From positions 118,940-182,939 of the forward strand of contig CAVVOB010000038.1 in assembly GCA_963749655.1 (NCBI GenBank): a DNA stretch of 64,000 nt, given 5' to 3'. This DNA is from Nitrospirota bacterium. GTDB lineage: Bacteria; Nitrospirota; UBA9217. The notes under the pieces were generated by a model. It searched no databases. It saw nothing but the letters and a program-made list of their open reading frames with translations, and was not told where the DNA came from. Made by a program: the position numbers and the translations under genes. This document shows positions 7,726 to 31,758 of the stretch, one piece after another. The first letter of the stretch is position 1. The number at the start of each line of letters is the position of its first letter.

Positions 7726-7898
7726 TCAGGAGTCAGGAGTCAGGAGTCAGGAGGATTCCACTTTCAAAGCAAGAGTTTCGCGCCAAGACGCAAAGGCGCA
7801 AAGAAAGTCTTTTTTTAAACGAGATCAAATTTTGAGATTCTCTTGGCGTCTTTGCGACTTTGCGCGAGACTGCTTTCAGAGAATGAGGATTTCCGATC

Positions 7899-8618: not shown

Positions 8619-8799
8619 GAAATGCGGAATAATTCAAATGCGGAATGCGGAATTCTGGAGTGCGGAATGAAAGGCGAATGCGAGAATGCGGATCACACAA
8701 GTTTACGCATCAGCTTGTGACCGCATAAACACATTTACATGTTCTCGACAACCTGAGACTCGAAACTTGAAACTTGAAACCTGAACCCGAAGGAGAAGT

Positions 8800-16493: not shown

Positions 16494-18236
16494 TCAGTGG
16501 TACTGGTACGCGCCGCTCGAGGGCGATGAAGCAAAAGAAAATCCGGTGTAGTCCTCGGTAACGCCGACAGAGGAACTTCCGAGAGTCTTGCATACCGACG
16601 AATTCAACAGTGCGAAGTCCGCGTTCGCGGTATCAGTCATATCAACAGTACCACCGATTCCATGAGATTCAAAACCCGTCGAGCCTGTAAATGCCGAGAC
16701 AAGATTGTATGCAGTTTCGCCATAGCCGAACATGTTCAGATGTTCGCTATAGCAGTTATTATCGATAACAGCGCCGGTCAAGGTAAGTGCGGAATAGAGA
16801 TGCGTGGATGAACCATAAAAAATATTGTTCTGGATCTTCGCGGTTGCGGCGCCGCTCCAATTAAAGACGGCCATATTGATCGTGGTGTTCTCCGAGAGAG
16901 TATTTTGAAATAGTTCGAACCCTTCTGCAGTCGGGGAATTATAGGCTATCCCGTAGCCTCTGTTATGGTGGATCAGTGAGGAGGTCAGCCGCAATTTGGC
17001 GCTTGTCGCTGTCGTCTCCTGCAAGCTGATCCCGTTGTCGTTGTCAGTGATGTTCATCCTGTGCATGCTGACGTTGCTAATATCTCCGGCCAGCTTCACA
17101 CCGTCTCCTATAGATCCTGAGATGGTCGTTGTATCGATCTGAACGTTGCTGATGCTGCCTGCCCCGTTGTCGGCTACTATGCGAATGCCGTAGCCCTCCG
17201 TCCCGTATCGCCTGCCGCTCCAACCGCGGCCCGAGTTCGTTATGGTCGTTTCGGAAATCAGCACCCCGGTCATAGTGCTGTTTGTTGTGCCGCCGTTGTC
17301 CAATACGGAAACTTCGATCCCTGCAAACCCGCAGGAACTGATCTGTGAATTTCTGATCGAGATTGAAGACATCGTCTGGCCGGATACCCATGTCTGAGGA
17401 GATATGCCGCTGTCGAATATGTCGTTTATCGTTACTCCATCAACCACGCCGTTTGTCGAAGAATTGTCGTACTCGACGCCGTTCCCTGCATACAGGAGGG
17501 GAGCAGTCATGATCACCGCGCCGCCGCCCTTTGAAAGGATCGAGTTATAGACCTCGCAGCGGACGCAATCTTCATAGTGAACGCCGTGCAGACTGAAACG
17601 AGTGATCTCGACGTTTTTTACGATAATGTCACTCTTCAATTTTGCAGTAATGCCGAAGATCTTGACGCTGGCTCGATATACATTTCCCGAAGGCGACGAT
17701 GCCGGTTTGATGTATAGTTTGGAAGGATACTCATAAGAAAAAGTGCCGACAGGCGCACCCAAAAAGGTGGTGGCAGCATTTGTAGACCAGGCCAGGAACG
17801 ACATCATCACGTCATTCTCGGACAGATTTCCTAGGGCTTCGTTCACGCCAAGGGTCATCGTAGAACTGCTATAAAGGCCGCCGCCTTCGTCTGTCCAGCC
17901 AGTTATTTCCTTTGACCCGTCAATCTTTGGCAGCATTCCGGTTCCATATGAATCGATCGTGATCCCCGAAGACGGAATTATCAGTTGTTCATACCAGACG
18001 CTCCCGCGCTTCAGGTAGATCATTGATCCGAATGGGATAGAAGATGTGGACACCTTTGCCAGAGATTGCCAGGGAGATAAACTTGTGCCCGCATTGGAAT
18101 CGCTTCCACTCGCAGCATCCACGTAAAACTGTTTCTGCGGCGGGGGAGATGAAGAACCTCCACTGCTGCATGATATCGAAAAAATACTAGATGCAAATAC
18201 AGTCACCATCAGAACCCGGTAAAAGATCGACTTCAT
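16494..18236 (-). CDS. Lipoprotein with right-handed beta-helix (pectin-lyase-like) repeats
   Basis: SISC lipobox; FYVDAASGSDSNAGTS..PW..L motif; Asn/Gly-rich PbH1-like repeats. Confidence 0.8.
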   Translation of the reverse strand: MKSIFYRVLMVTVFASSIFSISCSSGGSSSPPPQKQFYVDAASGSDSNAGTSLSPWQSLAKVSTSSIPFGSMIYLKRGSVWYEQLIIPSSGITIDSYGTGMLPKIDGSKEITGWTDEGGGLYSSSTMTLGVNEALGNLSENDVMMSFLAWSTNAATTFLGAPVGTFSYEYPSKLYIKPASSPSGNVYRASVKIFGITAKLKSDIIVKNVEITRFSLHGVHYEDCVRCEVYNSILSKGGGAVIMTAPLLYAGNGVEYDNSSTNGVVDGVTINDIFDSGISPQTWVSGQTMSSISIRNSQISSCGFAGIEVSVLDNGGTTNSTMTGVLISETTITNSGRGWSGRRYGTEGYGIRIVADNGAGSISNVQIDTTTISGSIGDGVKLAGDISNVSMHRMNITDNDNGISLQETTATSAKLRLTSSLIHHNRGYGIAYNSPTAEGFELFQNTLSENTTINMAVFNWSGAATAKIQNNIFYGSSTHLYSALTLTGAVIDNNCYSEHLNMFGYGETAYNLVSAFTGSTGFESHGIGGTVDMTDTANADFALLNSSVCKTLGSSSVGVTEDYTGFSFASSPSSGAYQYH

Positions 18237-18264
18237 CTTGCCTCCAGTGCGGTTCCAGCGGGAT

Positions 18265-18323
18265 TGATATCACGCGGCTGACGCGCCGCTTTTGGCGCGT
18301 CGCAGTCGAGCGCCTGGTTGGAA
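18265..18323 (-). other. attC site with non-canonical GAT core
   Basis: TTCCAAC-caggcgctcgactgcgacgcgccaaaagcggcgcgtcagccgcgt-GATATCA. Confidence 0.8.
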
Positions 18324-18346
18324 TGCTTGCATGGTATAGAGACGGC

Positions 18347-18679
18347 TTAGACGTGAGCTAAGGCAGGTAATCTTTTTATCTTCTTTATCTCTTTTGCAGT
18401 TGATGAGTGGGTCACATGATATAAATCCCACGCTAACTGTAAATTAAGCCAAAACTGCGCCTCCATGCCGAATAGCTTCTCCAGACGAAGTGCTGTGTCA
18501 GGGGTAATCCCCCGCTTCGCATGAATCAGTTCATTAACGCGAGGGTATGAAACTCCGAGCTTCTCCGCCAACTCGCTCTGTGTTATTTTCAGAGGTTTGA
18601 GAAACTCCTCCAACAGCATTTCGCCGGGATGCGTCGGCGGACCATATTTAGGTATGCGTACCATCTTCTTCTCCTTCAC
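18347..18679 (-). CDS. higA: HigA antitoxin
   Basis: PTHPGEMLLEEFLKPL..HTH..ITPDTALRL..FWLNLQ. Confidence 0.93.
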   Translation of the reverse strand: MKEKKMVRIPKYGPPTHPGEMLLEEFLKPLKITQSELAEKLGVSYPRVNELIHAKRGITPDTALRLEKLFGMEAQFWLNLQLAWDLYHVTHSSTAKEIKKIKRLPALAHV

Positions 18680-18682
18680 TCT

Positions 18683-18976
18683 TTAGTGGTAATCGGTAAT
18701 TTCCACGTTTTCCACGCCATCATCCGTCCACACAAAACAAACGCGGAACTGATCGTTAATCCGTATGCTGTGCTGACCTTTCCGATCATGCTTAAGGGCT
18801 TCCAGTAAATTCCCCGGTGGAATTTTTAATGACTCCAAGGAAATGACCCCATTTAACTGGTCGAGCTTACGCTGTGCTATCCGCCAGATTTGATGCGGAC
18901 AAGTTTCTCTGGCTTCTTTGGTGTTTCTTCTGTCAAAGATGTCCTCAGTGCCCTTGTCGCGAAACGATTTTATCAC
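18683..18976 (-). CDS. higB: HigB (RelE-like) toxin
   Basis: MIKSF..PPGN.LEAL..DRKGQHSIRINDQFRVCFVW..EITDYH; toxin gene precedes antitoxin. Confidence 0.93.
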   Translation of the reverse strand: MIKSFRDKGTEDIFDRRNTKEARETCPHQIWRIAQRKLDQLNGVISLESLKIPPGNLLEALKHDRKGQHSIRINDQFRVCFVWTDDGVENVEITDYH

Positions 18977-19013
18977 AAGGCGTCCCCGTCAGCATAATTT
19001 AACACTACGATAG

Positions 19014-19042
19014 ATTATAACGGATACCGTTATATATGGCAA
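19014..19042 (-). promoter_or_regulatory. higBA sigma70 promoter with palindromic operator
   Basis: TTGCCA-17-TATAAT; TATAACGG-N3-CCGTTATA palindrome at 19016-19034 overlaps the spacer and -10. Confidence 0.8.
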
Positions 19043-19071
19043 CAGCTATTTGACTGTCATAACTGGTATCT

Positions 19072-19317
19072 TTAGCGTTTTCTCTTGAAGAAACTTGCTA
19101 CCGCACCAAAGATAATGCCGAAACCGCCGCAAAACAGGCAGGTCAGTAATGGCGGTGGACCGGCATAAGGATTCGATGCAACTTTCATGGCGCCAACCTG
19201 GATTAGTCGAAGCCGGGCGCCTCCAAAGAATAATGCAAAGCCAATCAGGGCAAAGAGAAGCATCCGCAAATATAGTCGCGATCTCGATTTGGACTCGGAA
19301 TTATTGTTGATTGTCAT
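19072..19317 (-). CDS. Small two-TM cassette protein
   Basis: ATG with GAGG RBS just after the attC core; two hydrophobic segments. Confidence 0.65.
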   Translation of the reverse strand: MTINNNSESKSRSRLYLRMLLFALIGFALFFGGARLRLIQVGAMKVASNPYAGPPPLLTCLFCGGFGIIFGAVASFFKRKR

Positions 19318-19333
19318 GAATGTACCTCGCACA

Positions 19334-19393
19334 ATACAACGCGCCGGTCACGCGCCGCCTTCTGGCGCGTCGCTGTGGACCGGCAGGTTAACC
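19334..19393 (-). other. attC site
   Basis: GGTTAAC-ctgccggtccacagcgacgcgccagaaggcggcgcgtgaccggcgc-GTTGTAT; the upstream gene's stop lies within R''. Confidence 0.9.
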
Positions 19394-19813
19394 GTACCAT
19401 TCGCTGATTTTGCAGTGTTCGATACCCAATTGCCGTAACGTCTTCAGTGCCGTTTCTGATACGATTAAAGTGAAGTTGCTACTCAGGCCGAAATCATGGA
19501 GCCCGGCACGTCCTTCAATTTGAATCCATTGGAAGGCTGGAAGCTCCTTATTTCCGTAGAGTTCATTAAATTCTTCTGACTTTGAGGTCTTAACCTGTGC
19601 CAAACGATAACCAGTTAGCTTGGTTTCTTCCAATGTCGTCGCAGCTGCTTCTGTAATAATGAAGCATGGAAATGACTCAAGAAGCACGTCCCCCGACCAA
19701 CCATCAAGTTGGTAGTGTAATCTTTTCACTTTGGGAGGATGAATCGAAACATCGGCATCGGTACTATCGCCCCACCCACCCGCAACTTCTGGTTCAAGTT
19801 CAAAGTATTTCAT
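19388..19813 (-). CDS. Hypothetical cassette protein (possible immunity-type)
   Basis: 141-aa ORF ending in attC R''. Confidence 0.75.
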   Translation of the reverse strand: MKYFELEPEVAGGWGDSTDADVSIHPPKVKRLHYQLDGWSGDVLLESFPCFIITEAAATTLEETKLTGYRLAQVKTSKSEEFNELYGNKELPAFQWIQIEGRAGLHDFGLSSNFTLIVSETALKTLRQLGIEHCKISEWYG

Positions 19814-19877
19814 ATTCTTTCATGGCTAATGATTAACATCCTTGGTTGTCTGTGATGTTTTATCCAAAGTCGATTGT

Positions 19878-20201
19878 TTACGCTTTGCCCCCGTGTCCTT
19901 TTAGCCAGGGCTTCGCATGAATGGCTTCAATGTCACCTGCCTGCAATAAACGCCACAGAATTAGCATGTCTTCTGGTTTCTGATTCACCATATGCCATGG
20001 CCCGTCGCCAGATTCCAGATTCTGAAACACGACTTTACCTGACTCATGTGCCGAAATAGTCCAGCCATCGTCAGCAGTCAACCAACAATCAGGATGTTCC
20101 TCGTCAGGTGTTGTTAGCTCTGCCAGGGCTGCGCGCAACTCCTTTTCATTGGGATTGACTCCTCCTCCGCCCCAGCGTTTTTCGAGGTGTGTCGTGGTCA
20201 T
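19878..20201 (-). CDS. Hypothetical cassette protein (possible immunity-type)
   Basis: 107-aa acidic ORF with RBS shortly after the GTTAACT core. Confidence 0.75.
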   Translation of the reverse strand: MTTTHLEKRWGGGGVNPNEKELRAALAELTTPDEEHPDCWLTADDGWTISAHESGKVVFQNLESGDGPWHMVNQKPEDMLILWRLLQAGDIEAIHAKPWLKGHGGKA

Positions 20202-20230
20202 GTTACCTTCCTATTTCTAAAGAAGTTAAC

Positions 20231-22019
20231 GAGTCTGTAGAAAAAGTCGATTTGAAAAGCATCATTGATCCCGGGTAGCAAGTTTTTATCAGGGTGAGTT
20301 CTTGATTTGAGCTTTTGCGTGATTCAATCGGTCCTGGTCGATCTCGCTACTGCATTTTCTTTCTCTTTCTGCTTCCCGTTATCTCAACTTTCCGCGAACC
20401 CGAACCCGTATCGGTGCACTTTGAGCAGGTTGTGAACCACACAGTATAGCCGCCACTGGGTGCTTACCTTCTTTTTCCCTCTGAGACTGAAGCGGTCGAG
20501 ACCGAGACTCGATCGGATGTCAGCAAATACCGGTTCGACCGTCGCCATCCTTCGTCCGTAGATCAACTTGCCGGCCACCGAGTCTATCTTCTCTCGCATC
20601 TTCTGCGTGAAGGTCTTTTCTTGTTTGTTGGTCCTGCCTGTGAAATGGGAGAACTGGCGCGTTTCGGTCACCTCGGGGTTCTTCAGGCACTGCGCGCGCT
20701 GCGTGCACGGGATACAGTCTCGTTTTGTTCCGTGATACTTGATCGCATGGAGTCCATGATGATTCGCGTTGCCGCATTTGTACATCCGTTTCCCGGCCGG
20801 GCAGGTGCAGAAGCTTTTATCCGGGCTCACCGTGAAGTCTCTCGGCTGGAAGACGATCGGCCGGTCGAATTTCTTTGCGATCTCTTTATTGAACCTCTCC
20901 TTATGCCTGTCGGCCGTAGCATATCGGGGATCGCGATGACGGAACTTGTTATCCGCGATGTATGCGTCGATGCCTTCTTCGATTACCATCTGCACGTTCA
21001 TTGCGGAATGAAAACCGGCATCGGTCGTCAGTTGGGTCTTTTTGAAGATGTCCTCTTCTTTTCCGATTGTCTTGAAGTTTCCCCGGGTCCCTTCGACCAT
21101 GGGTTTAAGTATTGCAGTCTCGGAGTCTCCGGTCGTATCGGCATGGACAACTACCTTGTGTTTGCTGTCCACCATGGCTACACCGTTGTAACCCTGGACT
21201 ACTCCGTGCGAAGTCATCATATTCGCGCTTTCGTTGTCGGTTATGTTGCTCTTCCTCGGCCCCTTGCTGCCGGGCTTGTCGTCGTTATCGTTCATGAAGT
21301 CTTTTATCTTTTTGATCTTCGCCTTGAGGGTGGCTATATACTGCTCTTCCTTCTCGATTACCGCGTGGTCGGTCTCGGTTTTGTCCCGTTCCTTATGCTG
21401 AGCGATCATTGCCTTGATCGCCTTCTCCATCTTTTCTTTTTTACGTCGAAGATCCTTTTTAGTTCCGCTCCATTCCTTTGAAGCGTTCGAAGGGAGCTTG
21501 CAGCCATCGATAGCGAACATCTCTTTGCCGATCAGGCCCATCCGGTCGCAGATAAAGAGTACTTCAAGGAAGAGCTTCACCGTCTCCTGGTCGTTCGATG
21601 AGATGAAATCGGCGATCGTGGTGAAGTGCGGCCGGGTGTCTGCTGAGAGGGCCATAAACACGACGTTCTCGTTGCAGCATTCGGCGATCTTCCGACTGGA
21701 GGTGATTCCTTTGGAATAGGCGTAAAGGACGATCTTGAGCATAATCCTTGGATCGTAAGCCGGTGCGCCAGTTTCGTCGTTCTTATAGCGGAGATCGAAG
21801 GCGGAAAGGTCGATTTCATTGTCGATAAGATAGTGGAGCGTATGTTCAAAAGTGCCGGGAAGGATCTGTTTGTCGAAGCTGAGCGGGATAAATTTGCCTT
21901 GGGAATAGTCGTACTCTTTGTACTTCGCCATACGCCTCCCGTGGGTGAGGGGTTTTTGTTCTTCAGAAGTGCGTTTAGATGGCGCCAGTATAGCATAAAA
22001 TGACTTTTTCTACACCTTC
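20231..22019 (-). mobile_element. IS1182-family insertion sequence, copy 1 (1789 bp)
   Basis: Imperfect terminal IRs GAAGGTGTAGAAAAAGTC / GAGTCTGTAGAAAAAGTC; flanked by AAC at 20228-30 and 22020-22. Confidence 0.92.
20384..21931 (-). CDS. tnp: IS1182-family DDE transposase
   Basis: GAPAYDPRIMLKIVLYAY..SSRKI, AIDG.K, TD.ES, DAGF, R..TVEPVF motifs. Confidence 0.92.
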   Translation of the reverse strand: MAKYKEYDYSQGKFIPLSFDKQILPGTFEHTLHYLIDNEIDLSAFDLRYKNDETGAPAYDPRIMLKIVLYAYSKGITSSRKIAECCNENVVFMALSADTRPHFTTIADFISSNDQETVKLFLEVLFICDRMGLIGKEMFAIDGCKLPSNASKEWSGTKKDLRRKKEKMEKAIKAMIAQHKERDKTETDHAVIEKEEQYIATLKAKIKKIKDFMNDNDDKPGSKGPRKSNITDNESANMMTSHGVVQGYNGVAMVDSKHKVVVHADTTGDSETAILKPMVEGTRGNFKTIGKEEDIFKKTQLTTDAGFHSAMNVQMVIEEGIDAYIADNKFRHRDPRYATADRHKERFNKEIAKKFDRPIVFQPRDFTVSPDKSFCTCPAGKRMYKCGNANHHGLHAIKYHGTKRDCIPCTQRAQCLKNPEVTETRQFSHFTGRTNKQEKTFTQKMREKIDSVAGKLIYGRRMATVEPVFADIRSSLGLDRFSLRGKKKVSTQWRLYCVVHNLLKVHRYGFGFAES

Positions 22020-22074
22020 AACACGGCGCTGACGCGCCGACGTTGGCGCGTCGCTGTCGAGCGCCAGGTTGGTA
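22020..22074 (-). other. attC site with IS inserted at the core GTT
   Basis: TACCAAC-ctggcgctcgacagcgacgcgccaacgtcggcgcgtcagcgccgt-GTT, then IS, then GTTAACT. Confidence 0.9.
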
Positions 22075-22092
22075 CTTGCATCTCTCTTTTAT

Positions 22093-23073
22093 CTACGCAT
22101 ATCCGGCCCATGCCGAAAGGATTTTCCCTGCTCTCTGCTTGCTGAATCCGCATTCGACTGCCGTGTCTAGCGTAGTTCTTATATCTGCCTCGCTTGGCTT
22201 GAAATTCGGACCAAAAGACCTGCTTACGATTCCCATTGCTTTAATTGTTTCTAGGTCTTCTGAGAGAAGTGATGCAGCGACTTCGCTTTCTATTATAGTT
22301 TTGTGCTTGCCGCCTGACTGTGCAAAAAATGGTATCCGTGCCATCAATGATAAACTACGCGCTTGTTCAAGTTGTTCAGCACCATCTGGCATTGCGTCGT
22401 TCCTAGACTTAATCAATGATGTTTCTAAGGTCTGTAGAATGTCCTGCTCTCGCTCAAGGTTTCCACCAACTGCGGCGGCTTCTTCAAGCATGTCTTGCGT
22501 CTCCTGCAATAGTGATAAAGCGTTAGCCACAGAACTATGCTGACTCATCGCTCGCATTTTATCGCTGCAAAAGGATTCGAACTTCTTCTTGTACTGCTTC
22601 ACGAACACAAGGTCCATTTCCTGTGCATCGAGGATTTCTTGAATTGTAATAATCCTGCGGTCAGCAGGAAAAAGCAGGTTCCCGTCTCTGCGCTGAAGTT
22701 GCCTTTCGTAGCAACCTGGGGCGTCGCTCCATACCTTTTCTTCTTCGGCCCAAGCACGTGAAAGCCTGTGCGCCGTGTTGACCGGCATATTTTCACCGTA
22801 TTTTTCGATAAGTTCCTGCATCGTTTGTTCGATATATGCGCGTTCTTCCGGCGACGCGTCTGCTCGCTTTACACAAATCGAATTTACTGATACAGTTTTT
22901 CCTTCGAGGGCACCTTTATCAACAACATCGTGCATTTGTCGAGAAATTTGTTTGCGCTCTTTTTCTACAAGTATTTTTACATGCTCTGCCTGCTCTTGCG
23001 TCAATGTCACGCCGGTATCGCGTTTCGAGAATAGATTGATCGCCGCTTTTATTAAGAAGCTACCAATTCCCAT
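22093..23073 (-). CDS. Hypothetical helical cassette protein
   Basis: 326-aa ORF with GAGGAG RBS right after the attC core. Confidence 0.8.
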   Translation of the reverse strand: MGIGSFLIKAAINLFSKRDTGVTLTQEQAEHVKILVEKERKQISRQMHDVVDKGALEGKTVSVNSICVKRADASPEERAYIEQTMQELIEKYGENMPVNTAHRLSRAWAEEEKVWSDAPGCYERQLQRRDGNLLFPADRRIITIQEILDAQEMDLVFVKQYKKKFESFCSDKMRAMSQHSSVANALSLLQETQDMLEEAAAVGGNLEREQDILQTLETSLIKSRNDAMPDGAEQLEQARSLSLMARIPFFAQSGGKHKTIIESEVAASLLSEDLETIKAMGIVSRSFGPNFKPSEADIRTTLDTAVECGFSKQRAGKILSAWAGYA

Positions 23074-23087
23074 GTCATATCTCCTCA

Positions 23088-23151
23088 GACTAATGCGGCG
23101 GTAAGTCGCGGTCCCCGTAGGGGCCCGTCGATCTTGACTGCCTTGATCTCT
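23088..23151 (-). other. attC site with variant cores (R'' AGAGATC, R' ATTAGTC)
   Basis: aaggcagtcaagatcgac-gggcccctacggggacc-gcgacttaccgccgc has typical attC arm architecture. Confidence 0.7.
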
Positions 23152-23220
23152 CCGCGCTTTTTGCGGAGAAGGCAGTTCCGCGACTTACCGCCGCAATCTT
23201 TCCGCGATTGCGAAGCGCGG

Positions 23221-23278
23221 AGAGATCGATTGGCATCACTAGCGGCTGTAAGCCGTCCGGTGGATGCCATGGTTATGC
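23221..23278 (-). other. attC site with GAT core
   Basis: GCATAAC-catggcatccaccggacggcttacagccgctagtgatgccaatc-GATCTCT; R'' complements the cassette start GTTATGT. Confidence 0.8.
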
Positions 23279-23349
23279 AATTAGTTGGCTTCTTTACCAG
23301 TTGCAAAGCAATAGATGCCCCCTTGTTTCATAGCAAGCATAGATTTTCT

Positions 23350-25359
23350 TTAAAGTGTCTTCAGTTTATCAATGACAGTCGGATTTCGGCTAAGTTGCTC
23401 AATTGTTTTTTGCACAAATGTATTTAGTATCACGCCGTCGTACTTCCGCTGTTCCGCTTCCTTAACTTCATGTGCCGCTCTGAGAATTTCACCGGACTTA
23501 GCTTTCTTATTGACATGAATCATCCTATCTTGATCCGCTTGCTTCAAAATTTCTGACTGTATCTTCCAAATCTCTTTCCAGATATCTGACTTGCTCCATA
23601 ACGCCTCAAGCGTTTGATCAATTAAGCTCTGGAGTCGTCGATGGGCACGCAATTTCTTCAGCAACACTACGGGATCGATCGGTTTTGGCTGCGGTAGAGG
23701 TGGGAAGGGTGTATTACCTGTACCTGGGATTTGAGGCAACTCCACGGTGATATCTATGAGACCCCGTTCGATCAAATCGTGTAAGGCTCTCTCAAGTCTC
23801 GCTACCTTAGCAGCATCGAAAGCGTAGATTGTAACGGCCGTTTCGACATAGATTATCGATTTTCCATAGAAAAAGAACTGACCTTTTGCGACTGTGTTGA
23901 ATTTATCTACAGATTGAAAATTGAACTCTACTGCTGTATCATTGTCATAGTCAAAAGGGTTATTTGTGAATCCATCGAATATTTTCTGACCATCAACAGA
24001 TAGCGTCGATAAGGTAATATTTTGTGCTGTTGTTTGCCCATGCTTGATTATCACAACGCCCGATGTTCTAGTTGGGGGGGCGAGATTTCTCTCAACGAAT
24101 ACAGCAAAAATTGGGGATGTAATGTTACCGAGACGGTATGAATAGGTCACTTCAACGTAAGCCGTGCTTAAGTCGTCATGTCCCCTTCGAACATCAATAG
24201 GATTATTTACGATTCTGATCCAACGAAACGGAGCGTCAAGTTGTAGAATTGCGGCTGTTGTTGGATTCTGGTCTTTAATGAACAGATCAGCATCAGTGAT
24301 GCCATCATAACCTACTGGTGGACCACCACCTGTCTTATGAACATATGGGTAACAGTCAATAGCTGGTACTGCATCAACATTAGTCGACCGACAATAGTTA
24401 TCGTCATCCAGCAATCGCACGGTAACCGTGGAGAGAGCTCGGGGCAGTTTGAGATTGACGGTGGTACTTCCCGTTCTACTAGAGCACTGTTTGTTGTCTC
24501 TGCCCTTGGGAGATAATTCTGACTTAGCCTGACCGGGTCCCTTGTTGTAATTCCAGTTACTACCATCAACTTGGACGCAGAAGTAGGGGATGAAACAGCA
24601 TTGCCAGGAAAAATCCAGATCATAGTCGGCCACGGTTGCTGAACTAATCCCGGTTTGTTCGCACTTGTTAATTTTCACCAGTGTGCCGTCTTGAAAAGCA
24701 TAACTTCTGTCCTTGTCGTCGAGAAAGAAGCCATGGTATTCGTCTCCCCTATTGTGTCTAAGCCGAATATTACTTTGATCACCATTTAAATAGAATGTAA
24801 GACATACATCGTCATCATTAAAGTAAATTGGATCATAAATGAAGATAGTTACGTGGGTATCCGCGCCGCTCGGTGCTCCCTCCCCTTGGATTATTGACCT
24901 CTCCTCATATGCATATGCGACAACCCGATGGCTGTCTTCAAGGTGCTTAAGATTGACATCATTGGATGACGCAATGAGTGTAAGTGTTACTGGCTTAGAT
25001 TTATCGAGCAGATCCTTAACGCTTGGCCATTCCTGTTGTGTCATGTGCCCTTGGCTATGCTTGCGATTCCAATGACCTAAATCTGGACTTTCTTGCCATC
25101 GATAGATTTTCCAAAGGGTACTTGCAGGTAAGGAATTTACCTGCGTATCCCATATCTCATTATAAAGGGGGTCTCCCTCCGGAGGTTGTGGTATGTTTCT
25201 ATCGATAGGGATTGCATTATAGAATCTCTGCAGTGCTTTCCAGCACATTCCTCCACAAAATCCCATATCTAAGGTGACAGTATCAAAGACAAATGATTTT
25301 CTCCAAGAATTACCAAAAGGCCAGCCATGAATTGATGGTCTAAAGTATGTCGTTATCAT
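23350..25359 (-). CDS. Large cassette protein with putative papain-like Cys protease N-terminal domain
   Basis: FCGGM (Cys), SHRVVAY (His), IYDP (Asp) spacing; GGAGG RBS. Confidence 0.7.
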   Translation of the reverse strand: MITTYFRPSIHGWPFGNSWRKSFVFDTVTLDMGFCGGMCWKALQRFYNAIPIDRNIPQPPEGDPLYNEIWDTQVNSLPASTLWKIYRWQESPDLGHWNRKHSQGHMTQQEWPSVKDLLDKSKPVTLTLIASSNDVNLKHLEDSHRVVAYAYEERSIIQGEGAPSGADTHVTIFIYDPIYFNDDDVCLTFYLNGDQSNIRLRHNRGDEYHGFFLDDKDRSYAFQDGTLVKINKCEQTGISSATVADYDLDFSWQCCFIPYFCVQVDGSNWNYNKGPGQAKSELSPKGRDNKQCSSRTGSTTVNLKLPRALSTVTVRLLDDDNYCRSTNVDAVPAIDCYPYVHKTGGGPPVGYDGITDADLFIKDQNPTTAAILQLDAPFRWIRIVNNPIDVRRGHDDLSTAYVEVTYSYRLGNITSPIFAVFVERNLAPPTRTSGVVIIKHGQTTAQNITLSTLSVDGQKIFDGFTNNPFDYDNDTAVEFNFQSVDKFNTVAKGQFFFYGKSIIYVETAVTIYAFDAAKVARLERALHDLIERGLIDITVELPQIPGTGNTPFPPLPQPKPIDPVVLLKKLRAHRRLQSLIDQTLEALWSKSDIWKEIWKIQSEILKQADQDRMIHVNKKAKSGEILRAAHEVKEAEQRKYDGVILNTFVQKTIEQLSRNPTVIDKLKTL

Positions 25360-25392
25360 TCTTACCTCCTTTCATATTTGATAATTGTATCT

Positions 25393-25451
25393 ACATAACG
25401 CGGGCGTGAGGGGCGCGTCTTTAGCGACCCTCTCGACGCGCTTTGTTAGTA
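25393..25451 (-). other. attC site
   Basis: TACTAAC-aaagcgcgtcgagagggtcgctaaagacgcgcccctcacgcccgc-GTTATGT. Confidence 0.88.
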
Positions 25452-25951
25452 GCTGTTGACTTCTCCGGCTCGCATTTTATTTTGAGCATGGTTGTGGTTT
25501 GCTGCAAATTTTCATCCTCGTACTCTATCAAGAAGACGTTCTGATCGTTGTTATCCGGTTTCTCACGGCTTTCAGAACCCTTCGAATAATATCTGATTGC
25601 CAATAACAGCAGCCGCTTTTTGTTGAAATCAACCCAGTATCTGCGGATGTAGTGTATGTAACGAGGTGTCTTTCCTGATACATCACCAAAGTTCTGCCAA
25701 TTCTCGGAATCGGAGGTACACGATACCCATGGATTAGTTATTTGCTTCGAGTAGTAATCCAAGACGCGTTCGGACGGATAGGAGGCTTCTACTTTAAAGA
25801 ATAATTCGTTGGCTTTTGCTGTTCCTTCGGATAGCGGAATATGCTGAATGTCTTTTGCTTCAGGATAAATTGGAAAGGATGCCCAATCGGCACCGAGGAC
25901 AATAGCAGGCAGTAGCAACATCATTGTCAATGTAAAAACCATGATCCTCAT
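25421..25951 (-). CDS. Secreted hypothetical cassette protein
   Basis: Signal peptide; ORF reads into the attC and stops within it. Confidence 0.8.
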   Translation of the reverse strand: MRIMVFTLTMMLLLPAIVLGADWASFPIYPEAKDIQHIPLSEGTAKANELFFKVEASYPSERVLDYYSKQITNPWVSCTSDSENWQNFGDVSGKTPRYIHYIRRYWVDFNKKRLLLLAIRYYSKGSESREKPDNNDQNVFLIEYEDENLQQTTTMLKIKCEPEKSTATNKARREGR

Positions 25952-25971
25952 TGTATTTTCTCCAGACTAAC

Positions 25972-27760
25972 GAGTCTGTAGAAAAAGTCGATTTGAAAAG
26001 CATCATTGATCCCGGGTAGCAAGTTTTTATCAGGGTGAGTTCTTGATTTGAGCTTTTGCGTGATTCAATCGGTCCTGGTCGATCTCGCTACTGCATTTTC
26101 TTTCTCTTTCTGCTTCCCGTTATCTCAACTTTCCGCGAACCCGAACCCGTATCGGTGCACTTTGAGCAGGTTGTGAACCACACAGTATAGCCGCCACTGG
26201 GTGCTTACCTTCTTTTTCCCTCTGAGACTGAAGCGGTCGAGACCGAGACTCGATCGGATGTCAGCAAATACCGGTTCGACCGTCGCCATCCTTCGTCCGT
26301 AGATCAACTTGCCGGCCACCGAGTCTATCTTCTCTCGCATCTTCTGCGTGAAGGTCTTTTCTTGTTTGTTGGTCCTGCCTGTGAAATGGGAGAACTGGCG
26401 CGTTTCGGTCACCTCGGGGTTCTTCAGGCACTGCGCGCGCTGCGTGCACGGGATACAGTCTCGTTTTGTTCCGTGATACTTGATCGCATGGAGTCCATGA
26501 TGATTCGCGTTGCCGCATTTGTACATCCGTTTCCCGGCCGGGCAGGTGCAGAAGCTTTTATCCGGGCTCACCGTGAAGTCTCTCGGCTGGAAGACGATCG
26601 GCCGGTCGAATTTCTTTGCGATCTCTTTATTGAACCTCTCCTTATGCCTGTCGGCCGTAGCATATCGGGGATCGCGATGACGGAACTTGTTATCCGCGAT
26701 GTATGCGTCGATGCCTTCTTCGATTACCATCTGCACGTTCATTGCGGAATGAAAACCGGCATCGGTCGTCAGTTGGGTCTTTTTGAAGATGTCCTCTTCT
26801 TTTCCGATTATCTTGAAGTTTTCCCGGGTCCCTTCGACCATGGGTTTAAGTATTGCAGTCTCGGAGTCTCCGGTCGCATCGGCATGGACAACTACCTGGT
26901 GTTTGCTGTCCACCATGGCTACACCGTTGTAACCCTGGACTACTCCGTGCGAAGTCATCATATTCGCGCTTTCGTTGTCGGTTATGTTGCTCTTCCTCGG
27001 CCCCTTGCTGCCGGGCTTGTCGTCGTTATCGTTCATGAAGTCTTTTATCTTTTTGATCTTCGCCTTGAGGGTGGCTATATACTGCTCTTCCTTCTCGATT
27101 ACCGCGTGGTCGGTCTCGGTTTTGTCCCGTTCCTTATGCTGAGCGATCATTGCCTTGATCGCCTTCTCCATCTTTTCTTTCTTACGTCGAAGATCCTTTT
27201 TAGTTCCGCTCCATTCCTTTGAAGCGTTCGAAGGGAGCTTGCAGCCGTCGATAGCGAACATCTCTTTGCCGATCAGGCCCATCCGGTCGCAGATAAAGAG
27301 TACTTCAAGGAAGAGCTTCACCGTCTCCTGGTCGTTCGATGAGATGAAATCGGCGATCGTGGTGAAGTGCGGCCGGGTGTCGGCGGAGAGGGCCATGAAG
27401 ATGACATTCTCATTGCAACAGTCGGCGATCTTCCGGCTGGAGGTGATCCCTTTGGAGTAGGCATACAGGACGATCTTGAGCATGATCCGGGGATCGTAGG
27501 CCGGAGCGCCGGTTTCGTCGTTCCTGTACCGGAGGTCGAATGTCGAAAGGTCGAGATCGTTGTCGATCAGATAGTGGAGGGTGTGCTCGAAGGTGCCGGG
27601 GAGGATCTGTTTGTCGAAGCTGAGCGGGATGAACTTGCCTTGGGAATAGTCGTACTCTTTGTACTTCGCCATACGCCTCCCGTAGGTGAGGGGTTTTGAT
27701 GTATCAGAAGTGCGTTTCGATGGCGTCAGTATAGCACAAAATGACTTTTCCTACACCTTC
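25972..27760 (-). mobile_element. IS1182-family insertion sequence, copy 2 (1789 bp)
   Basis: Same IRs and length; AAC at 25969-71 and 27761-63. Confidence 0.92.
26125..27672 (-). CDS. tnp: IS1182-family transposase
   Basis: 515 aa, near-identical to copy 1. Confidence 0.92.
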   Translation of the reverse strand: MAKYKEYDYSQGKFIPLSFDKQILPGTFEHTLHYLIDNDLDLSTFDLRYRNDETGAPAYDPRIMLKIVLYAYSKGITSSRKIADCCNENVIFMALSADTRPHFTTIADFISSNDQETVKLFLEVLFICDRMGLIGKEMFAIDGCKLPSNASKEWSGTKKDLRRKKEKMEKAIKAMIAQHKERDKTETDHAVIEKEEQYIATLKAKIKKIKDFMNDNDDKPGSKGPRKSNITDNESANMMTSHGVVQGYNGVAMVDSKHQVVVHADATGDSETAILKPMVEGTRENFKIIGKEEDIFKKTQLTTDAGFHSAMNVQMVIEEGIDAYIADNKFRHRDPRYATADRHKERFNKEIAKKFDRPIVFQPRDFTVSPDKSFCTCPAGKRMYKCGNANHHGLHAIKYHGTKRDCIPCTQRAQCLKNPEVTETRQFSHFTGRTNKQEKTFTQKMREKIDSVAGKLIYGRRMATVEPVFADIRSSLGLDRFSLRGKKKVSTQWRLYCVVHNLLKVHRYGFGFAES

Positions 27761-27763
27761 AAC

Positions 27764-29552
27764 GAGTCTGTAGAAAAAGTCGATTTGAAAAGCATCATTG
27801 ATCCCGGGTAGCAAGTTTTTATCAGGGTGAGTTCTTGATTTGAGCTTTTGCGTGATTCAATCGGTCCTGGTCGATCTCGCTACTGCATTTTCTTTCTCTT
27901 TCTGCTTCCCGTTATCTCAACTTTCCGCGAACCCGAACCCGTATCGGTGCACTTTGAGCAGGTTGTGAACCACACAGTATAGCCGCCACTGGGTGCTTAC
28001 CTTCTTTTTCCCTCTGAGACTGAAGCGGTCGAGACCGAGACTCGATCGGATGTCAGCAAATACCGGTTCGACCGTCGCCATCCTTCGTCCGTAGATCAAC
28101 TTGCCGGCCACCGAGTCTATCTTCTCTCGCATCTTCTGCGTGAAGGTCTTTTCTTGTTTGTTGGTCCTGCCTGTGAAATGGGAGAACTGGCGCGTTTCGG
28201 TCACCTCGGGGTTCTTCAGGCACTGCGCGCGCTGCGTGCACGGGATACAGTCTCGTTTTGTTCCGTGATACTTGATCGCATGGAGTCCATGATGATTCGC
28301 GTTGCCGCATTTGTACATCCGTTTCCCGGCCGGGCAGGTGCAGAAGCTTTTATCCGGGCTCACCGTGAAGTCTCTCGGCTGGAAGACGATCGGCCGGTCG
28401 AATTTCTTTGCGATCTCTTTATTGAACCTCTCCTTATGCCTGTCGGCCGTAGCATATCGGGGATCGCGATGACGGAACTTGTTATCCGCGATGTATGCGT
28501 CGATGCCTTCTTCGATTACCATCTGCACGTTCATTGCGGAATGAAAACCGGCATCGGTCGTCAGTTGGGTCTTTTTGAAGATGTCCTCTTCTTTTCCGAT
28601 TATCTTGAAGTTTTCCCGGGTCCCTTCGACCATGGGTTTAAGTATTGCAGTCTCGGAGTCTCCGGTCGCATCGGCATGGACAACTACCTGGTGTTTGCTG
28701 TCCACCATGGCTACACCGTTGTAACCCTGGACTACTCCGTGCGAAGTCATCATATTCGCGCTTTCGTTGTCGGTTATGTTGCTCTTCCTCGGCCCCTTGC
28801 TGCCGGGCTTGTCGTCGTTATCGTTCATGAAGTCTTTTATCTTTTTGATCTTCGCCTTGAGGGTGGCTATATACTGCTCTTCCTTCTCGATTACCGCGTG
28901 GTCGGTCTCGGTTTTGTCCCGTTCCTTATGCTGAGCGATCATTGCCTTGATCGCCTTCTCCATCTTTTCTTTCTTACGTCGAAGATCCTTTTTAGTTCCG
29001 CTCCATTCCTTTGAAGCGTTCGAAGGGAGCTTGCAGCCGTCGATAGCGAACATCTCTTTGCCGATCAGGCCCATCCGGTCGCAGATAAAGAGTACTTCAA
29101 GGAAGAGCTTCACCGTCTCCTGGTCGTTCGATGAGATGAAATCGGCGATCGTGGTGAAGTGCGGCCGGGTGTCGGCGGAGAGGGCCATGAAGATGACATT
29201 CTCATTGCAACAGTCGGCGATCTTCCGGCTGGAGGTGATCCCTTTGGAGTAGGCATACAGGACGATCTTGAGCATGATCCGGGGATCGTAGGCCGGAGCG
29301 CCGGTTTCGTCGTTCCTGTACCGGAGGTCGAATGTCGAAAGGTCGAGATCGTTGTCGATCAGATAGTGGAGGGTGTGCTCGAAGGTGCCGGGGAGGATCT
29401 GTTTGTCGAAGCTGAGCGGGATGAACTTGCCTTGGGAATAGTCGTACTCTTTGTACTTCGCCATACGCCTCCCGTAGGTGAGGGGTTTTGATGTATCAGA
29501 AGTGCGTTTCGATGGCGTCAGTATAGCACAAAATGACTTTTCCTACACCTTC
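27764..29552 (-). mobile_element. IS1182-family insertion sequence, copy 3 (1789 bp, tandem with copy 2)
   Basis: Appears identical to copy 2; separated from it by AAC only; AAC at 29553-55. Confidence 0.9.
27917..29464 (-). CDS. tnp: IS1182-family transposase
   Basis: Same protein sequence as copy 2. Confidence 0.92.
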   Translation of the reverse strand: MAKYKEYDYSQGKFIPLSFDKQILPGTFEHTLHYLIDNDLDLSTFDLRYRNDETGAPAYDPRIMLKIVLYAYSKGITSSRKIADCCNENVIFMALSADTRPHFTTIADFISSNDQETVKLFLEVLFICDRMGLIGKEMFAIDGCKLPSNASKEWSGTKKDLRRKKEKMEKAIKAMIAQHKERDKTETDHAVIEKEEQYIATLKAKIKKIKDFMNDNDDKPGSKGPRKSNITDNESANMMTSHGVVQGYNGVAMVDSKHQVVVHADATGDSETAILKPMVEGTRENFKIIGKEEDIFKKTQLTTDAGFHSAMNVQMVIEEGIDAYIADNKFRHRDPRYATADRHKERFNKEIAKKFDRPIVFQPRDFTVSPDKSFCTCPAGKRMYKCGNANHHGLHAIKYHGTKRDCIPCTQRAQCLKNPEVTETRQFSHFTGRTNKQEKTFTQKMREKIDSVAGKLIYGRRMATVEPVFADIRSSLGLDRFSLRGKKKVSTQWRLYCVVHNLLKVHRYGFGFAES

Positions 29553-29608
29553 AACGCGCGCCTGACGCGCCGCCGTGTGGCGCGTCGCTGTCGAGGCGCA
29601 GGTTGGTT
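29553..29608 (-). other. attC of first cassette with IS inserted at the core GTT
   Basis: AACCAAC-ctgcgcctcgacagcgacgcgccacacggcggcgcgtcaggcgcgc-GTT, IS, GTT, IS, GTTAGTC. Confidence 0.9.
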
Positions 29609-29632
29609 CTCGCCTTTTTGGGCAGGCTACTA

Positions 29633-29938
29633 TTACTCAATTTTCGCTTGGCAATGTTTGCATTCTTTGGGGATAGAAAAAAATATATTAACTTGATTAA
29701 AAAGAGACGCGCCACAATTAGAACACGTGATTTTTCGATATGAGAAAATTTGGTATAAATAGATTGGGCCTAATATAAAGAACATGATCAGCATTATCTT
29801 ATCTGGTAGGTCAAAGAAGTTTAGCAGTTTTTCGCTGCCAATCAAAAGGAGCACAACAACTACGAATGTGAGAAGCACGCGCAAAACCCATTTGTTTTTT
29901 TCTCGCTCTATTTCATGTTTAATCATTATTTCCACCAT
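29633..29938 (-). CDS. First cassette: two-TM protein with C-terminal zinc ribbon
   Basis: Two TM helices, then CSNC...CKHC. Confidence 0.8.
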   Translation of the reverse strand: MVEIMIKHEIEREKNKWVLRVLLTFVVVVLLLIGSEKLLNFFDLPDKIMLIMFFILGPIYLYQIFSYRKITCSNCGASLFNQVNIFFSIPKECKHCQAKIE

Positions 29939-29948
29939 ATAGATTTAG

Positions 29949-29966
29949 AACTAACCAGTGTTTGTC
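29949..29966 (-). other. attI site
   Basis: GACAAAC-actg-GTTAGTT just upstream of cassette 1; core nearly complements cassette 1 R'' AACCAAC; no attC hairpin. Confidence 0.75.
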
Positions 29967-30043
29967 GAGCCCTTGCTAAGTCGTAAAGAGCGGATTTCCG
30001 TTCTTTACGACTTAGCAAGATTGATACCCTAATTCCTGCCGCG

Positions 30044-30073
30044 AGTATATTTTATCGTCAGCTCGGTTGTCAA
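30044..30073 (-). promoter_or_regulatory. Pc cassette promoter
   Basis: TTGACA-18-TATACT pointing at attI. Confidence 0.75.
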
Positions 30074-30087
30074 GGAAACTTTGTTGC

Positions 30088-30116
30088 TTGACAGGTGAAC
30101 GAATGTTCACTATAAT
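30088..30116 (+). promoter_or_regulatory. PintI promoter with GAAC-N4-GTTC (LexA-like) operator
   Basis: Perfect TTGACA-17-TATAAT; spacer holds palindrome GTGAAC-gaat-GTTCAC. Confidence 0.82.
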
Positions 30117-30175
30117 AGTAAACGAATTGACGGAGTTACGCACACAGGAGTTTAATTGTCTGGTGAGGGCTGACG

Positions 30176-31614
30176 ATGAAAAGCATACATCCGGAAATCC
30201 TCGCGCGTTTTGATAACATTCTGAAAATACGGCAACTTCCTTTTCCTGTGCGTCCCGATTACCGGAAATGGCTTAGGTACTTTCTGGATTTTCAAGCCAA
30301 ATATCCGCAGCCCGGGGAACGGTCGGATCAGGTCCGGCGTTTCTCTGAAAAACTCCGGTCAAAGGGGCAGACTGAAACGCAGGTACGGCAGGCGGCGGAT
30401 GCCGTATCGCTTTTTTTCGCGTCTCAGCAAGAGGCGCCTGTCGCGCCTGCATCGACCCGATCGGTGACTGTCCCTCATACTGTCGTTTCAATCGCCGCGG
30501 AACAATCGCGCACAGAAGGCCTCGTTGTGTCGTCTGGTGGGAGGGTGCCCGGTATGGTCTGCGACCCGCCCGGGTCGCCGGTTCCTGATGAACACATCAT
30601 GCGTCGCAAGGGCCGGTTTGATGATTGGCGTTGTCTGAAAAAAACAGGGTACCCTGCCTGGGACGCAATCATCGCCTCTCTTGCCGATGAGATCAAAACG
30701 AGGCATTACTCCAGAAAAACGCTCCAACACTATGCAAACTGGACCAGAAAATTCCAGAGCTATCTGTCGCATAAAGATCCGGCCCTGCTTTCGCCACAGG
30801 ACGTGAAGTGTTACCTTACCTATCTTGCAGTTCAGTGCAAGGTGTCCTCGTCGACGCAGAATCTGGCATTCAACGCATTGCTGTTCCTGTACCGGCATGT
30901 TCTGAAAAAGGATTTCGGAAATCACAAGGACATTCCCCGAGCAAAAAAGTCCACCTATGTTCCGGTAGTGCTCTCCCGCGATGAAGTCCAGGAGGTTCTT
31001 GCACGACTGGGACAGCCGTATCAACTTATCGCCAAGCTGCAGTACGGCTGCGGACTGCGTCGTTTTGAAGCGGTGAAGGTGCGCGTGAAGGACTTCAATT
31101 TCGATGCGGGCCTGCTCACGGTCAAGGGGAAAGGCGGCAAGAGCCGGGCAGTGCCGCTCCCGAACAGGATCTTGCCTGAATTGCTCGCCCAACTGGCATT
31201 TGTGAAAAAGGTGCATGCCGACGACCTGTGCTGCCGGTTACGCAGGGGTGTTTTTGGAAGACCAATTGGAAAGGAAGTATCCGAACGCGCCCCAGGGAGT
31301 TTCAATGGCAATGGTTCTTCCCGCAGGAATCATTAACGGTCGTGGCATCGTCCGGGGAAAAGCGACGCTATCACGTACATGACTCGCGGTTTCAGGATGC
31401 GATGTATTTTGCTGTTAAAAGAGCCCAGCTCACCAAGCGCGTAACTACACATACGCTTCGGCACTCTTTCGCCACGCACCTCCTGCAGGCGAACTACGAT
31501 ATTCGCACGATCCAGGAAATGCTCGGCCACTCGGATGTCAGGACGACGATGATCTACACGCATTGCGTTCCGAGCAGGACGGCGAAAGAGAGAAAGAGCC
31601 CGCTTGATTTCTGA
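30176..31614 (+). CDS. intI: Integron integrase, long N-terminus type (two apparent +1 frameshifts near 31228 and 31291)
   Basis: [29 protein letters not shown], restored IntI insert [56 protein letters not shown]. Confidence 0.92.
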
Positions 31615-31758
31615 TCAGAACAAACAGCCTGAACCGCGAGGGCGCCAGGGTCGCGAGGACGGCTTAGTCATAGGCGGATAAATTGAAGTTTAAGGTTTCC
31701 TGGCTACCTTCGCGCCTTCGCGGTGAAAATCGTCGAGTAATAGATTCCGTTCCTTCCT

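Follow-up and report, generated by a model that had tools for sequence, protein, structure and literature searches.

The DNA examined here is a 64,000-nucleotide stretch of a Nitrospirota draft genome (GenBank assembly GCA_963749655.1, contig CAVVOB010000038.1, positions 118,940 to 182,939; hereafter the window), in which three copies of a 1789-bp insertion sequence (IS) lie in the cassette array of an integron. The gene capture behind multidrug resistance, and behind much environmental adaptation, proceeds mainly through integrons, and the IS copies sit directly behind the GTT of the attC R' box, the triplet of the IntI crossover. Together with further copies in the host genome and relatives in other genomes and metagenomes, they very probably represent a clade of IS1182-family DDE (Asp-Asp-Glu) elements that is site- and orientation-specific for the attC 3' end.

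An IS1182-family element at attC sites

Repeat coordinates, the strands of the open reading frames (ORFs) and an attC covariance model all bear out a preliminary description of the window, which had placed three co-oriented 1789-bp copies at attC R' cores. Its claim that the 64 kb hold no further copy also stands, there being no fourth copy within the window or its contig. The copies and their flanking triplets are:

20231–22019, minus strand: IS copy 1, 1789 bp, with 18-bp imperfect terminal inverted repeats GAAGGTGTAGAAAAAGTC and GAGTCTGTAGAAAAAGTC
20384–21931, minus strand: transposase gene of copy 1, 515 residues, IS1182 family
20228–20230, minus strand: GTT (AAC on the plus strand) 3' of copy 1, beginning GTTAACT, what remains of the native core at the following cassette
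25972–27760, minus strand: IS copy 2, 1789 bp, downstream partner of a tandem pair
26125–27672, minus strand: transposase ORF of copy 2
25969–25971, minus strand: GTT 3' of copy 2, beginning GTTAGTC of the next cassette (ORF 25421–25951)
27764–29552, minus strand: IS copy 3, 1789 bp, same as copy 2, upstream partner of the tandem pair
27917–29464, minus strand: transposase ORF of copy 3
27761–27763, minus strand: lone GTT separating tandem copies 3 and 2

Read along the minus strand, the first site runs attC arm-GTT / GAAGGTGTAG...CTACAGACTC / GTTAACT and the second attC arm-GTT / IS / GTT / IS / GTTAGTC, exactly as the preliminary description had given them. All three copies at the two sites lie flush behind an attC R' GTT with GTT on both flanks, and the IS is sense to the cassettes, since cassette ORFs and transposase genes alike occupy the minus strand. 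The terminal inverted repeats are 18 bp long and imperfect (GAAGGTGTAGGAAAAGTC and GAGTCTGTAGAAAAAGTC, 14 of 18 positions matching). Copies 2 and 3, arranged head-to-tail with one GTT between them, have no differences, while copy 1 departs from both at 55 positions; plus-strand positions 1411–1779 contain 49 of these. Copy 1 is therefore a mosaic, its differences crowding into 380 nt at the transposase-proximal end, a pattern that suggests recombination between IS variants. The left end reads GAAGG in the window copies and GAACC in the other copies of the genome.

With 1789 bp, one 515-residue ORF and 18-bp inverted repeats, the element fits the architecture of the IS1182 family, whose members are ~1.3–2 kb long. 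This assignment, made in the preliminary description, is borne out by the NCBIfam profile NF033551 ('IS1182 family transposase'), matched over profile positions 6–487 of 488 at 278.2 and 278.9 bits, a narrow margin above the cut-off of 270, and by the Pfam domains DUF772 (PF05598), DDE_Tnp_1 (PF01609) and DDE_Tnp_1_6 (PF13751), all above their gathering cut-offs. D142, D255 and E466, which may be the catalytic DDE triad, are invariant in eight aligned transposases, as is the Y458/R461/E466 stretch. Four cysteines (C377, C406, C409 and C415), placed after the second D and before the E of this putative triad, are likewise invariant in this alignment, which reaches down to 51% identity, and could form a metal-binding insertion domain for target capture.

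To locate attC sites we used two home-made covariance models, R1 and the broader R2, which were trained on Nitrospirota attCs and stand in for the IntegronFinder attC model. R1 was built only on IS-free attCs from this genome, 22 in number, with the R''/R' pairs added; RNAalifold predicts 12 pairs for these 22 aligned hairpins, 9 of the 12 with compensatory changes, and the bulged bases are conserved. R1 gives six co-oriented minus-strand matches in the window, listed with the integrase gene:

29549–29608, minus strand: attC of the first cassette (ORF 29633–29938), R1 66.8 bits, E 2e-21; R' GTT at 29553–29555, followed by IS copy 3
25393–25450, minus strand: unoccupied attC, R1 59.2 bits
23088–23148, minus strand: unoccupied attC, a weaker match, R1 22.3 bits, E 1e-4
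22016–22074, minus strand: attC of the cassette with ORF 22093–23073, R1 65.3 bits, E 7e-21; R' GTT at 22020–22022, with 22016–22019 belonging to the IS end
19334–19393, minus strand: unoccupied attC, R1 72.2 bits
18265–18323, minus strand: attC-like site at the distal array end, with a degenerate R' lacking GTT, R1 52.8 bits
30671–31608, plus strand: gene of the integron integrase, oriented divergently to the cassettes, its coding sequence distributed over two frames (profile positions 2–188 at 30671–31231, 209–313 at 31291–31608)

At both occupied attCs of the window the final four R1 model positions are supplied by the IS end, and with scores of 65.3 and 66.8 bits obtained in this way the attC hairpin is whole. 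The preliminary description's claim of a hairpin left intact by insertion also holds across the genome, where occupied attCs score 52.9–73.1 bits, within the 24–76-bit range of all own-genome matches. As the genome contains 106,332 GTT triplets (both strands) and at least 47 model-detected attCs, finding both window sites at one attC model position and in one orientation is far beyond chance. A second array (C29:13662–35990) has an intI gene at C29:9153–9992 with an internal TAA, so that both intI genes of the genome appear broken, which may reflect real decay of sedentary integrons or assembly consensus errors.

Copies in the rest of the host genome

The host genome is a 4.27-Mb draft of 39 contigs (86.6% complete, 5.8% contamination), and the 47 attCs found in it by R1 (E≤0.01, whole genome) are a lower bound, 150 of 2292 first-look candidates having been scored. 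Outside the window it carries further IS copies, as well as a 217-nt miniature inverted-repeat transposable element (MITE):

C29:22339–24127: IS copy, 97% identical to copy 2
C29:30998–32791: IS copy, 86% identical
C28:190018–191807: off-target IS copy, 97% identical
C30:121261: IS 5' fragment of 134 nt, adjoining a truncated attC-like match (E 1e-3) flush with the junction
C14:216407–216623: 217-nt MITE, followed by GTT and a second copy at 216627–216843 (80.6% identical)
C29:21095–21311: 217-nt MITE
C30:120050–120266: 217-nt MITE
behind the second C29 IS copy: MITE remnant of 32 nt

MITE and IS are alike in their terminal repeats only (~18 nt), and the MITE also sits behind attC GTTs. GTT stands on both flanks in all seven complete own-genome copies. 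Seven of the 47 attCs are occupied, four by the IS and three by the MITE, always at one model position and on one strand; counted by insertion site, seven of nine IS or MITE sites are at this same attC position and an eighth is at a truncated attC. Flanking attCs and downstream sequences differ between the sites, which are therefore separate insertions. No copy in this genome lies at another hairpin type such as a terminator.

The remaining copy, on C28, has GTT on both sides and breaks an ORF of ~584 codons. There is no significant attC match at this site (best R2 E 0.55, although this match ends flush at the junction). Its left flank is the 13-mer TCAGCGCCGCGTT, identical to an attC 3' arm and present eight times in the 4.27 Mb: four times in attCs, once at the C28 site and three times elsewhere. 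An insertion at one of just four non-attC copies of this 13-mer indicates, in this single case, that some 10 or more nucleotides of arm sequence can direct insertion without a hairpin. The broken ORF (C28:189532–193031, L029) is internally repetitive, its halves being 55% identical to each other. The same 13-mer ends an attC-like palindrome of ~130 nt in an unrelated metagenome (L082:430–590), which carries an IS followed by GTTAGGC and adjoins what is left of the C-terminal part of an intI gene.

Relatives in other genomes

With one genome per species scanned, 14 loci were obtained, all in metagenome-assembled genomes (MAGs) labelled Nitrospirota, Nitrospirae or Thermodesulfovibrionia, the near-full-length matches having 68–93% protein identity; the transposase is present in 31 of 401 genomes of the phylum. 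After removal of duplicates and of loci without the 5' end, 23 unique 5' junctions were available, 14 of which have an attC match at E<0.01 on the transposase strand, ending 3–4 nt inside the IS. Twelve of these matches come from R1 (E 3e-22 to 5e-4) and two from R2 (L054, E 1e-3; L040, E 7e-3). Three further junctions are partial or ambiguous: L008 with a 21-nt flank, L020 with E 0.08, and L037, where an attC is fused to a 5'-truncated IS. Additional co-oriented attC matches in the flanks identify the loci in other genomes as arrays. In a maximum-likelihood tree the attC-associated transposases, without L040, form one clade with support 99/95, sister to L046/L047/L049, and the transposase of the C28 off-target copy is nested inside this clade.

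At L037 (1436–1501) the attC is joined to the 5' untranslated region of the truncated IS through a common CCCCTCAC string, and there is a likeness between the IS leader (..CCCCTCACCTACGGGAGG..) and the 3' arm found in one of the local attC types. The Qrc-like and DsrP-like respiratory complex subunit genes at window positions 5533–10176, outside the integron, together with the closest IS-bearing relatives in Nitrospirota/Thermodesulfovibrionia MAGs, suggest that the host is a sulfate-reducing member of the phylum.

A plasmid collection contained relatives in only three records; identity stays below 60% in each, and no clinical integron is among the carriers. On a 1.3-Mb Pseudoalteromonas piscicida replicon, an element with 40% identity is GTT-flanked and lies amid co-oriented attC matches; its junction flank has no repeat elsewhere in its own record at E≤0.001. 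A Catenovulum relative was excluded because its ends are degenerate.

Relatives in metagenomes

Metagenomes were scanned with the eight-sequence alignment, and at least 538 of 598 candidate stretches encode relatives; 80 loci with 56–85% identity, among the matches listed, were analysed. The left end was located in 73 loci; 72 of these have 3 nt or more of flank, in which GTT precedes the element 71 times and CGTT 61 times. Where both ends were located, the flanks are GTT/GTT in 63 loci and GTT/GGT in one. Left flanks fold more stably than 2792 GTT-ending control windows from the same loci (median -12.6 versus -5.7 kcal/mol; Mann-Whitney p 4e-18), with 26 of 61 below the controls' 5th percentile of folding energy. 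Sixty-two loci have 60 nt or more of non-tandem flank; R2 matches flush with the junction reach E≤0.01 in 23 of these and fall at 0.01<E<1 in a further nine. One locus without a match at the junction has a 134-nt attC match elsewhere. By eye, many of the flanks from elements at 56–66% identity are of a common ..AAC..CAGCGGAC..GCCGCTGA..GTT type. Searched against their own loci, the junction flanks have extra copies in only 7 of 63 loci, the contigs being short. A search of all loci with an IntI fragment found intI remnants in three, none of them with the IS directly at attI, the arrangement that would reveal capture of an IS-led cassette by IntI. Compared with window positions 19700–29650, wetland and freshwater-sediment contigs carry IS variants 90–99% alike, as well as members of the attC family whose agreement with the window breaks off precisely at 22019/22020 and 29553, the edges of the IS.

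On the other side of the element, the right flank reads GTTR in 53 of 57 loci and GTTRRRY (R, purine; Y, pyrimidine) in 25 of 57, where ~3.6 would be expected with four random bases; GTTAGGC is the commonest form (11 of 57). This sequence, used by no attC model, thus resembles the canonical core. It also bears on how the elements came to their positions. Since the IS coincides precisely with the IntI crossover triplet, it would form the 5' portion of whichever cassette follows, and the arrays contain repeated attCs of one family, so a single ancestral insertion might have been spread among attCs as part of a cassette, by IntI shuffling or by homologous recombination between attCs. A passenger of this kind would retain its downstream cassette, yet the downstream sequence is different at every genome site and in all 57 metagenome right flanks, which largely refutes the idea; no IS-plus-cassette unit was seen to be shared among the sites. 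In addition, a MITE with only terminal repeats in common holds the same position, the C28 copy interrupts a coding gene outside arrays with GTT on both sides, and both intI genes look broken. We give spread by shuffling an exceedingly slim chance.

Scanning the flanks of the copies and their homologues with attC models, the check proposed in the preliminary description, thus placed the IS or MITE at 7 of 47 own-genome attCs, at 14 of 23 genome junctions (E<0.01) and in dozens of metagenome contigs. The opposite outcome, with most copies at GTT sites unrelated to attC, was looked for and did not occur. A weak preference for GTT or CGTT could nonetheless be imagined to produce an attC bias by survivorship, harmless insertions into the dispensable DNA of cassette arrays persisting while others are purged, and the CGTT left flank in most metagenome loci and the few junctions with no detectable attC would agree with this. 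But many of the genome's 33,515 CGTT and 106,332 GTT sites are intergenic, and against these the 47 attCs account for seven of nine insertion sites, all at one position, with the eighth at a truncated attC. Survivorship does not explain the constant orientation at all flush same-strand attC junctions, to which a weak opposite-strand match at L125 is a possible exception. The off-target site at one of only four non-attC copies of an attC-arm 13-mer and the right flanks bearing the RRRY half of the core also speak against it. We regard survivorship as a highly unlikely explanation, and site- and orientation-specific targeting of the attC 3' end remains our preferred one.

Target duplication and tandem arrays

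The preliminary description had proposed that insertion duplicates GTT and so preserves the attC. GTT on both sides and a whole attC are observed; the duplication itself is the part deduced from repeat symmetry and flank variants. The terminal repeats end GA.../...TC, the flanking triplets are direct (GTT...GTT) and not inverted, and in three right flanks the triplet has become TTT, GCT or GGT, from which we infer that GTT is a 3-bp target duplication and not part of the element.

Head-to-tail tandems separated by GTT were found in at least nine cases. The host genome contributes window copies 3 and 2, the C14 MITE pair, and an IS with a MITE remnant on C29. Elsewhere, IS and MITE are paired in L013 and L142, and the 3' end of another element stands just before the IS in L065, L091 and L117; in L117 a further left end also follows, placing the IS between two others. 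The first three bases of the element are purines in 73 of 73 loci, so the hybrid core formed with the preceding GTT is always GTTRRR, and it is a perfect GTTRRRY in 37 of 73.

Because copies 2 and 3 do not differ and come from a draft genome (39 contigs, 86.6% complete), one might suppose that a single copy was assembled twice, in which case the pair would tell nothing about target regeneration. GTT-separated tandems with non-identical partners are found in other contigs and samples (the C14 MITE pair at 80.6%, L013, L142, L117, L065 and L091), and we see a very slight chance that the window tandem is an assembly artefact of this sort.

Observations that do not fit

A number of observations weigh against targeting of the attC 3' end, or against parts of it. 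Six of the 23 genome junctions (L046, L047, L049, L050, L051 and L053) have no attC match by R1 or R2; all six keep GTT before the element, and in L046 the element is followed by GTTAGGC. About half of the metagenome junctions are likewise without a significant attC match. They may represent attC types unseen by the models or real non-attC sites, as the models were trained on attCs of one phylum. L094 has TCT instead of GTT at the left. L125 (2042–2121) has four attC matches antisense to the IS, and its junction hairpin also scores better on their strand (E 0.069 versus 4), making this locus a possible exception to the orientation rule. The draft genome is incomplete and its identical tandem could be an assembly effect, though the arrangement recurs in unrelated contigs. 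The defective appearance of both intI genes bears on whether IntI acts at loaded attCs, and reading of the arm as sequence rests on a single clear off-target site while the targeted arms differ widely between lineages.

Furthermore, related genomes and sequencing runs yielded no pre-insertion (empty) allele for any of the sites, so it is the symmetry of the repeats, with the three variant right flanks, that speaks for a GTT duplication over a GTT borne by the element at its 3' end. An uninterrupted relative of the C28 gene was sought in 41 related genomes, giving one distant match (47% identity) in which the junction is uncovered. The sequencing runs, the best of which held ≤0.13 of the sampled words, gave no same-site allele without the IS. 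A 'skip' joint from 25973 to 29565 (side 22 nt, depth 2) was considered as an excision product and ruled out, being another attC-cassette junction with a common cassette start.

Target recognition

The junctions are consistent with the following mechanism. The transposase would capture the attC 3' end asymmetrically and join the transposase-proximal end of the element to the attC side, inserting at the conserved R' GTT by 3-nt staggered cuts that duplicate the triplet. Target determinants would lie upstream of the cut (L' box, spacer and R' GTT), such that the attC and its GTT are left intact before the element, whose own first bases (GAR) would restore a GTT-RRR core. Each insertion would then regenerate the target, which would explain the IS-GTT-IS, IS-GTT-MITE and MITE-GTT-MITE pile-ups, and the 217-nt MITE, alike in its terminal repeats only, would be mobilised in trans to the same position.

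As to what is recognised, the C28 insertion at an attC-arm 13-mer with no detectable hairpin points to sequence reading, and we infer that it is mainly the sequence of the attC 3' arm that is read. That arms vary between lineages would fit structure reading, or lineage-specific adaptation. Targeting could thus be real but directed at a folded hairpin or cruciform, as for IS1272 and TnSha1, which in the accounts excerpted from PMC4923244 and PMC5678879 enter hairpins with little sequence conservation. Within the clade attCs differ strongly in sequence between lineages while the hairpin is kept, and the constant orientation would suit reading of one folded strand. Against this, the C28 site has the arm sequence with no significant attC-like structure, and no own-genome copy is found at other hairpins, e.g. 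a terminator. The insertion point is also fixed at GTT and the hairpin never trimmed, whereas IS1272 deletes part of the stem with no duplication, according to the description of its targets in PMC4923244. A YTSA-N7-CGTT motif persists by eye in poorly folding flanks, although some of these may be long attCs cut by the 75-nt window used for folding. We consider recognition of the fold in place of the arm sequence unlikely, and favour sequence reading of the 3' arm. By eye, no covariation was seen between the variable bases 3–5 of the left repeat and the target arm.

It is plausible that a loaded attC is still usable by IntI, with the IS riding as leader of the next cassette. A more tentative extension, which we put forward as a possibility on the doubtful side, is that the GAR left end has evolved as a mimic of the RRRY core half, that attC-GTT/GAR stays an IntI substrate, that IS and MITE are excised, captured and spread by integrases, and that the transposase reads the L'-R' boxes much as IntI does.

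Comparison with known elements and implications

Two kinds of attC-site parasite have been described, both of unusual chemistry and lying antisense near the attC 5' end in the portions of PMC3001079 and PMC11187229 that deal with them. The IS1111-attC group (IS110/IS1111: ISPa21, ISPst6, ISKpn4) is, like the present clade, a monophyletic subgroup of its own family (PMC3001079; PMC11187229, in excerpt). Its DEDD transposase is guided by a seekRNA (same excerpt of PMC11187229), whereas the present element is of the IS1182 DDE type, in a region with no RNA family match. The excerpted text of PMC3001079 places the group near the attC 5' end and antisense to the cassettes, in contrast to the 3' R' GTT position, sense orientation and bilateral GTT described here. 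Group IIC-attC introns are likewise a monophyletic mobile lineage that homes to attC hairpins in cassette arrays; as that same text has it, they are retroelements in the bottom strand, near the attC 5' end and antisense, unlike our sense-oriented element with its terminal inverted repeats. A search of window positions 17000–32000 against Rfam at E≤0.1 gave no match, group II intron RNA included, and Pfam gives transposase domains only, with no reverse transcriptase.

Closer relatives are the staphylococcal IS1272 and TnSha1, which belong to the same IS1182 family and also have hairpin-capable targets, with repeated independent insertions at one target (PMC4923244; PMC5678879, in excerpt). Some IS1182 members target palindromes, according to a review cited in the excerpted part of PMC4923244, where IS1272 is described as having little sequence preference, cutting within the stem and deleting part of the hairpin, with no target duplication, and TnSha1 as inserting in both orientations at one of its targets. 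By comparison, the present clade leaves the hairpin whole, is cut in at the GTT of its 3' base with GTT at both ends (63 of 64 metagenome elements), has a fixed orientation and uses only attC as a target class. IS that target repetitive extragenic palindromes (REP) or bacterial interspersed mosaic elements (BIME) similarly land safely in a repeated, foldable and dispensable element (Tobes and Pareja 2006, as cited in an excerpt of PMC3971601; ISPa11 in an excerpt of PMC11187229). Their targets are REP and not attC, and the chemistry of ISPa11 is also different, being IS1111-type. No REP-targeting element is known to us to insert where a site-specific recombination site undergoes crossover. Our search of the full-text literature found no description of attC targeting by an IS1182-type element; ISfinder, TnPedia and the supplements of papers lay outside that search.

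The clade thus joins a family tendency towards foldable targets with the known attC niche in a new way, at the 3' end, in sense, at the crossover triplet and with the target preserved. It would constitute a third, mechanistically different and apparently common kind of integron-colonising mobile element, and a natural model for near-base-pair site and orientation specificity in a DDE transposase. IS5-like transposases are the commonest in cassette amplicons (IS5, 49%, in the excerpt of PMC11089894), an abundance that the attC-targeting clade may explain. Its position predicts polar or promoter effects on downstream cassettes and suggests a route for the joint movement of transposons and cassettes. 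If the left end is indeed a mimic of the core, the element would be a DDE transposon plugged into the integron exchange system, with self-renewing, orientation-controlled landing at a recombination hotspot, and would covertly drive the evolution of cassette arrays in environmental bacteria.

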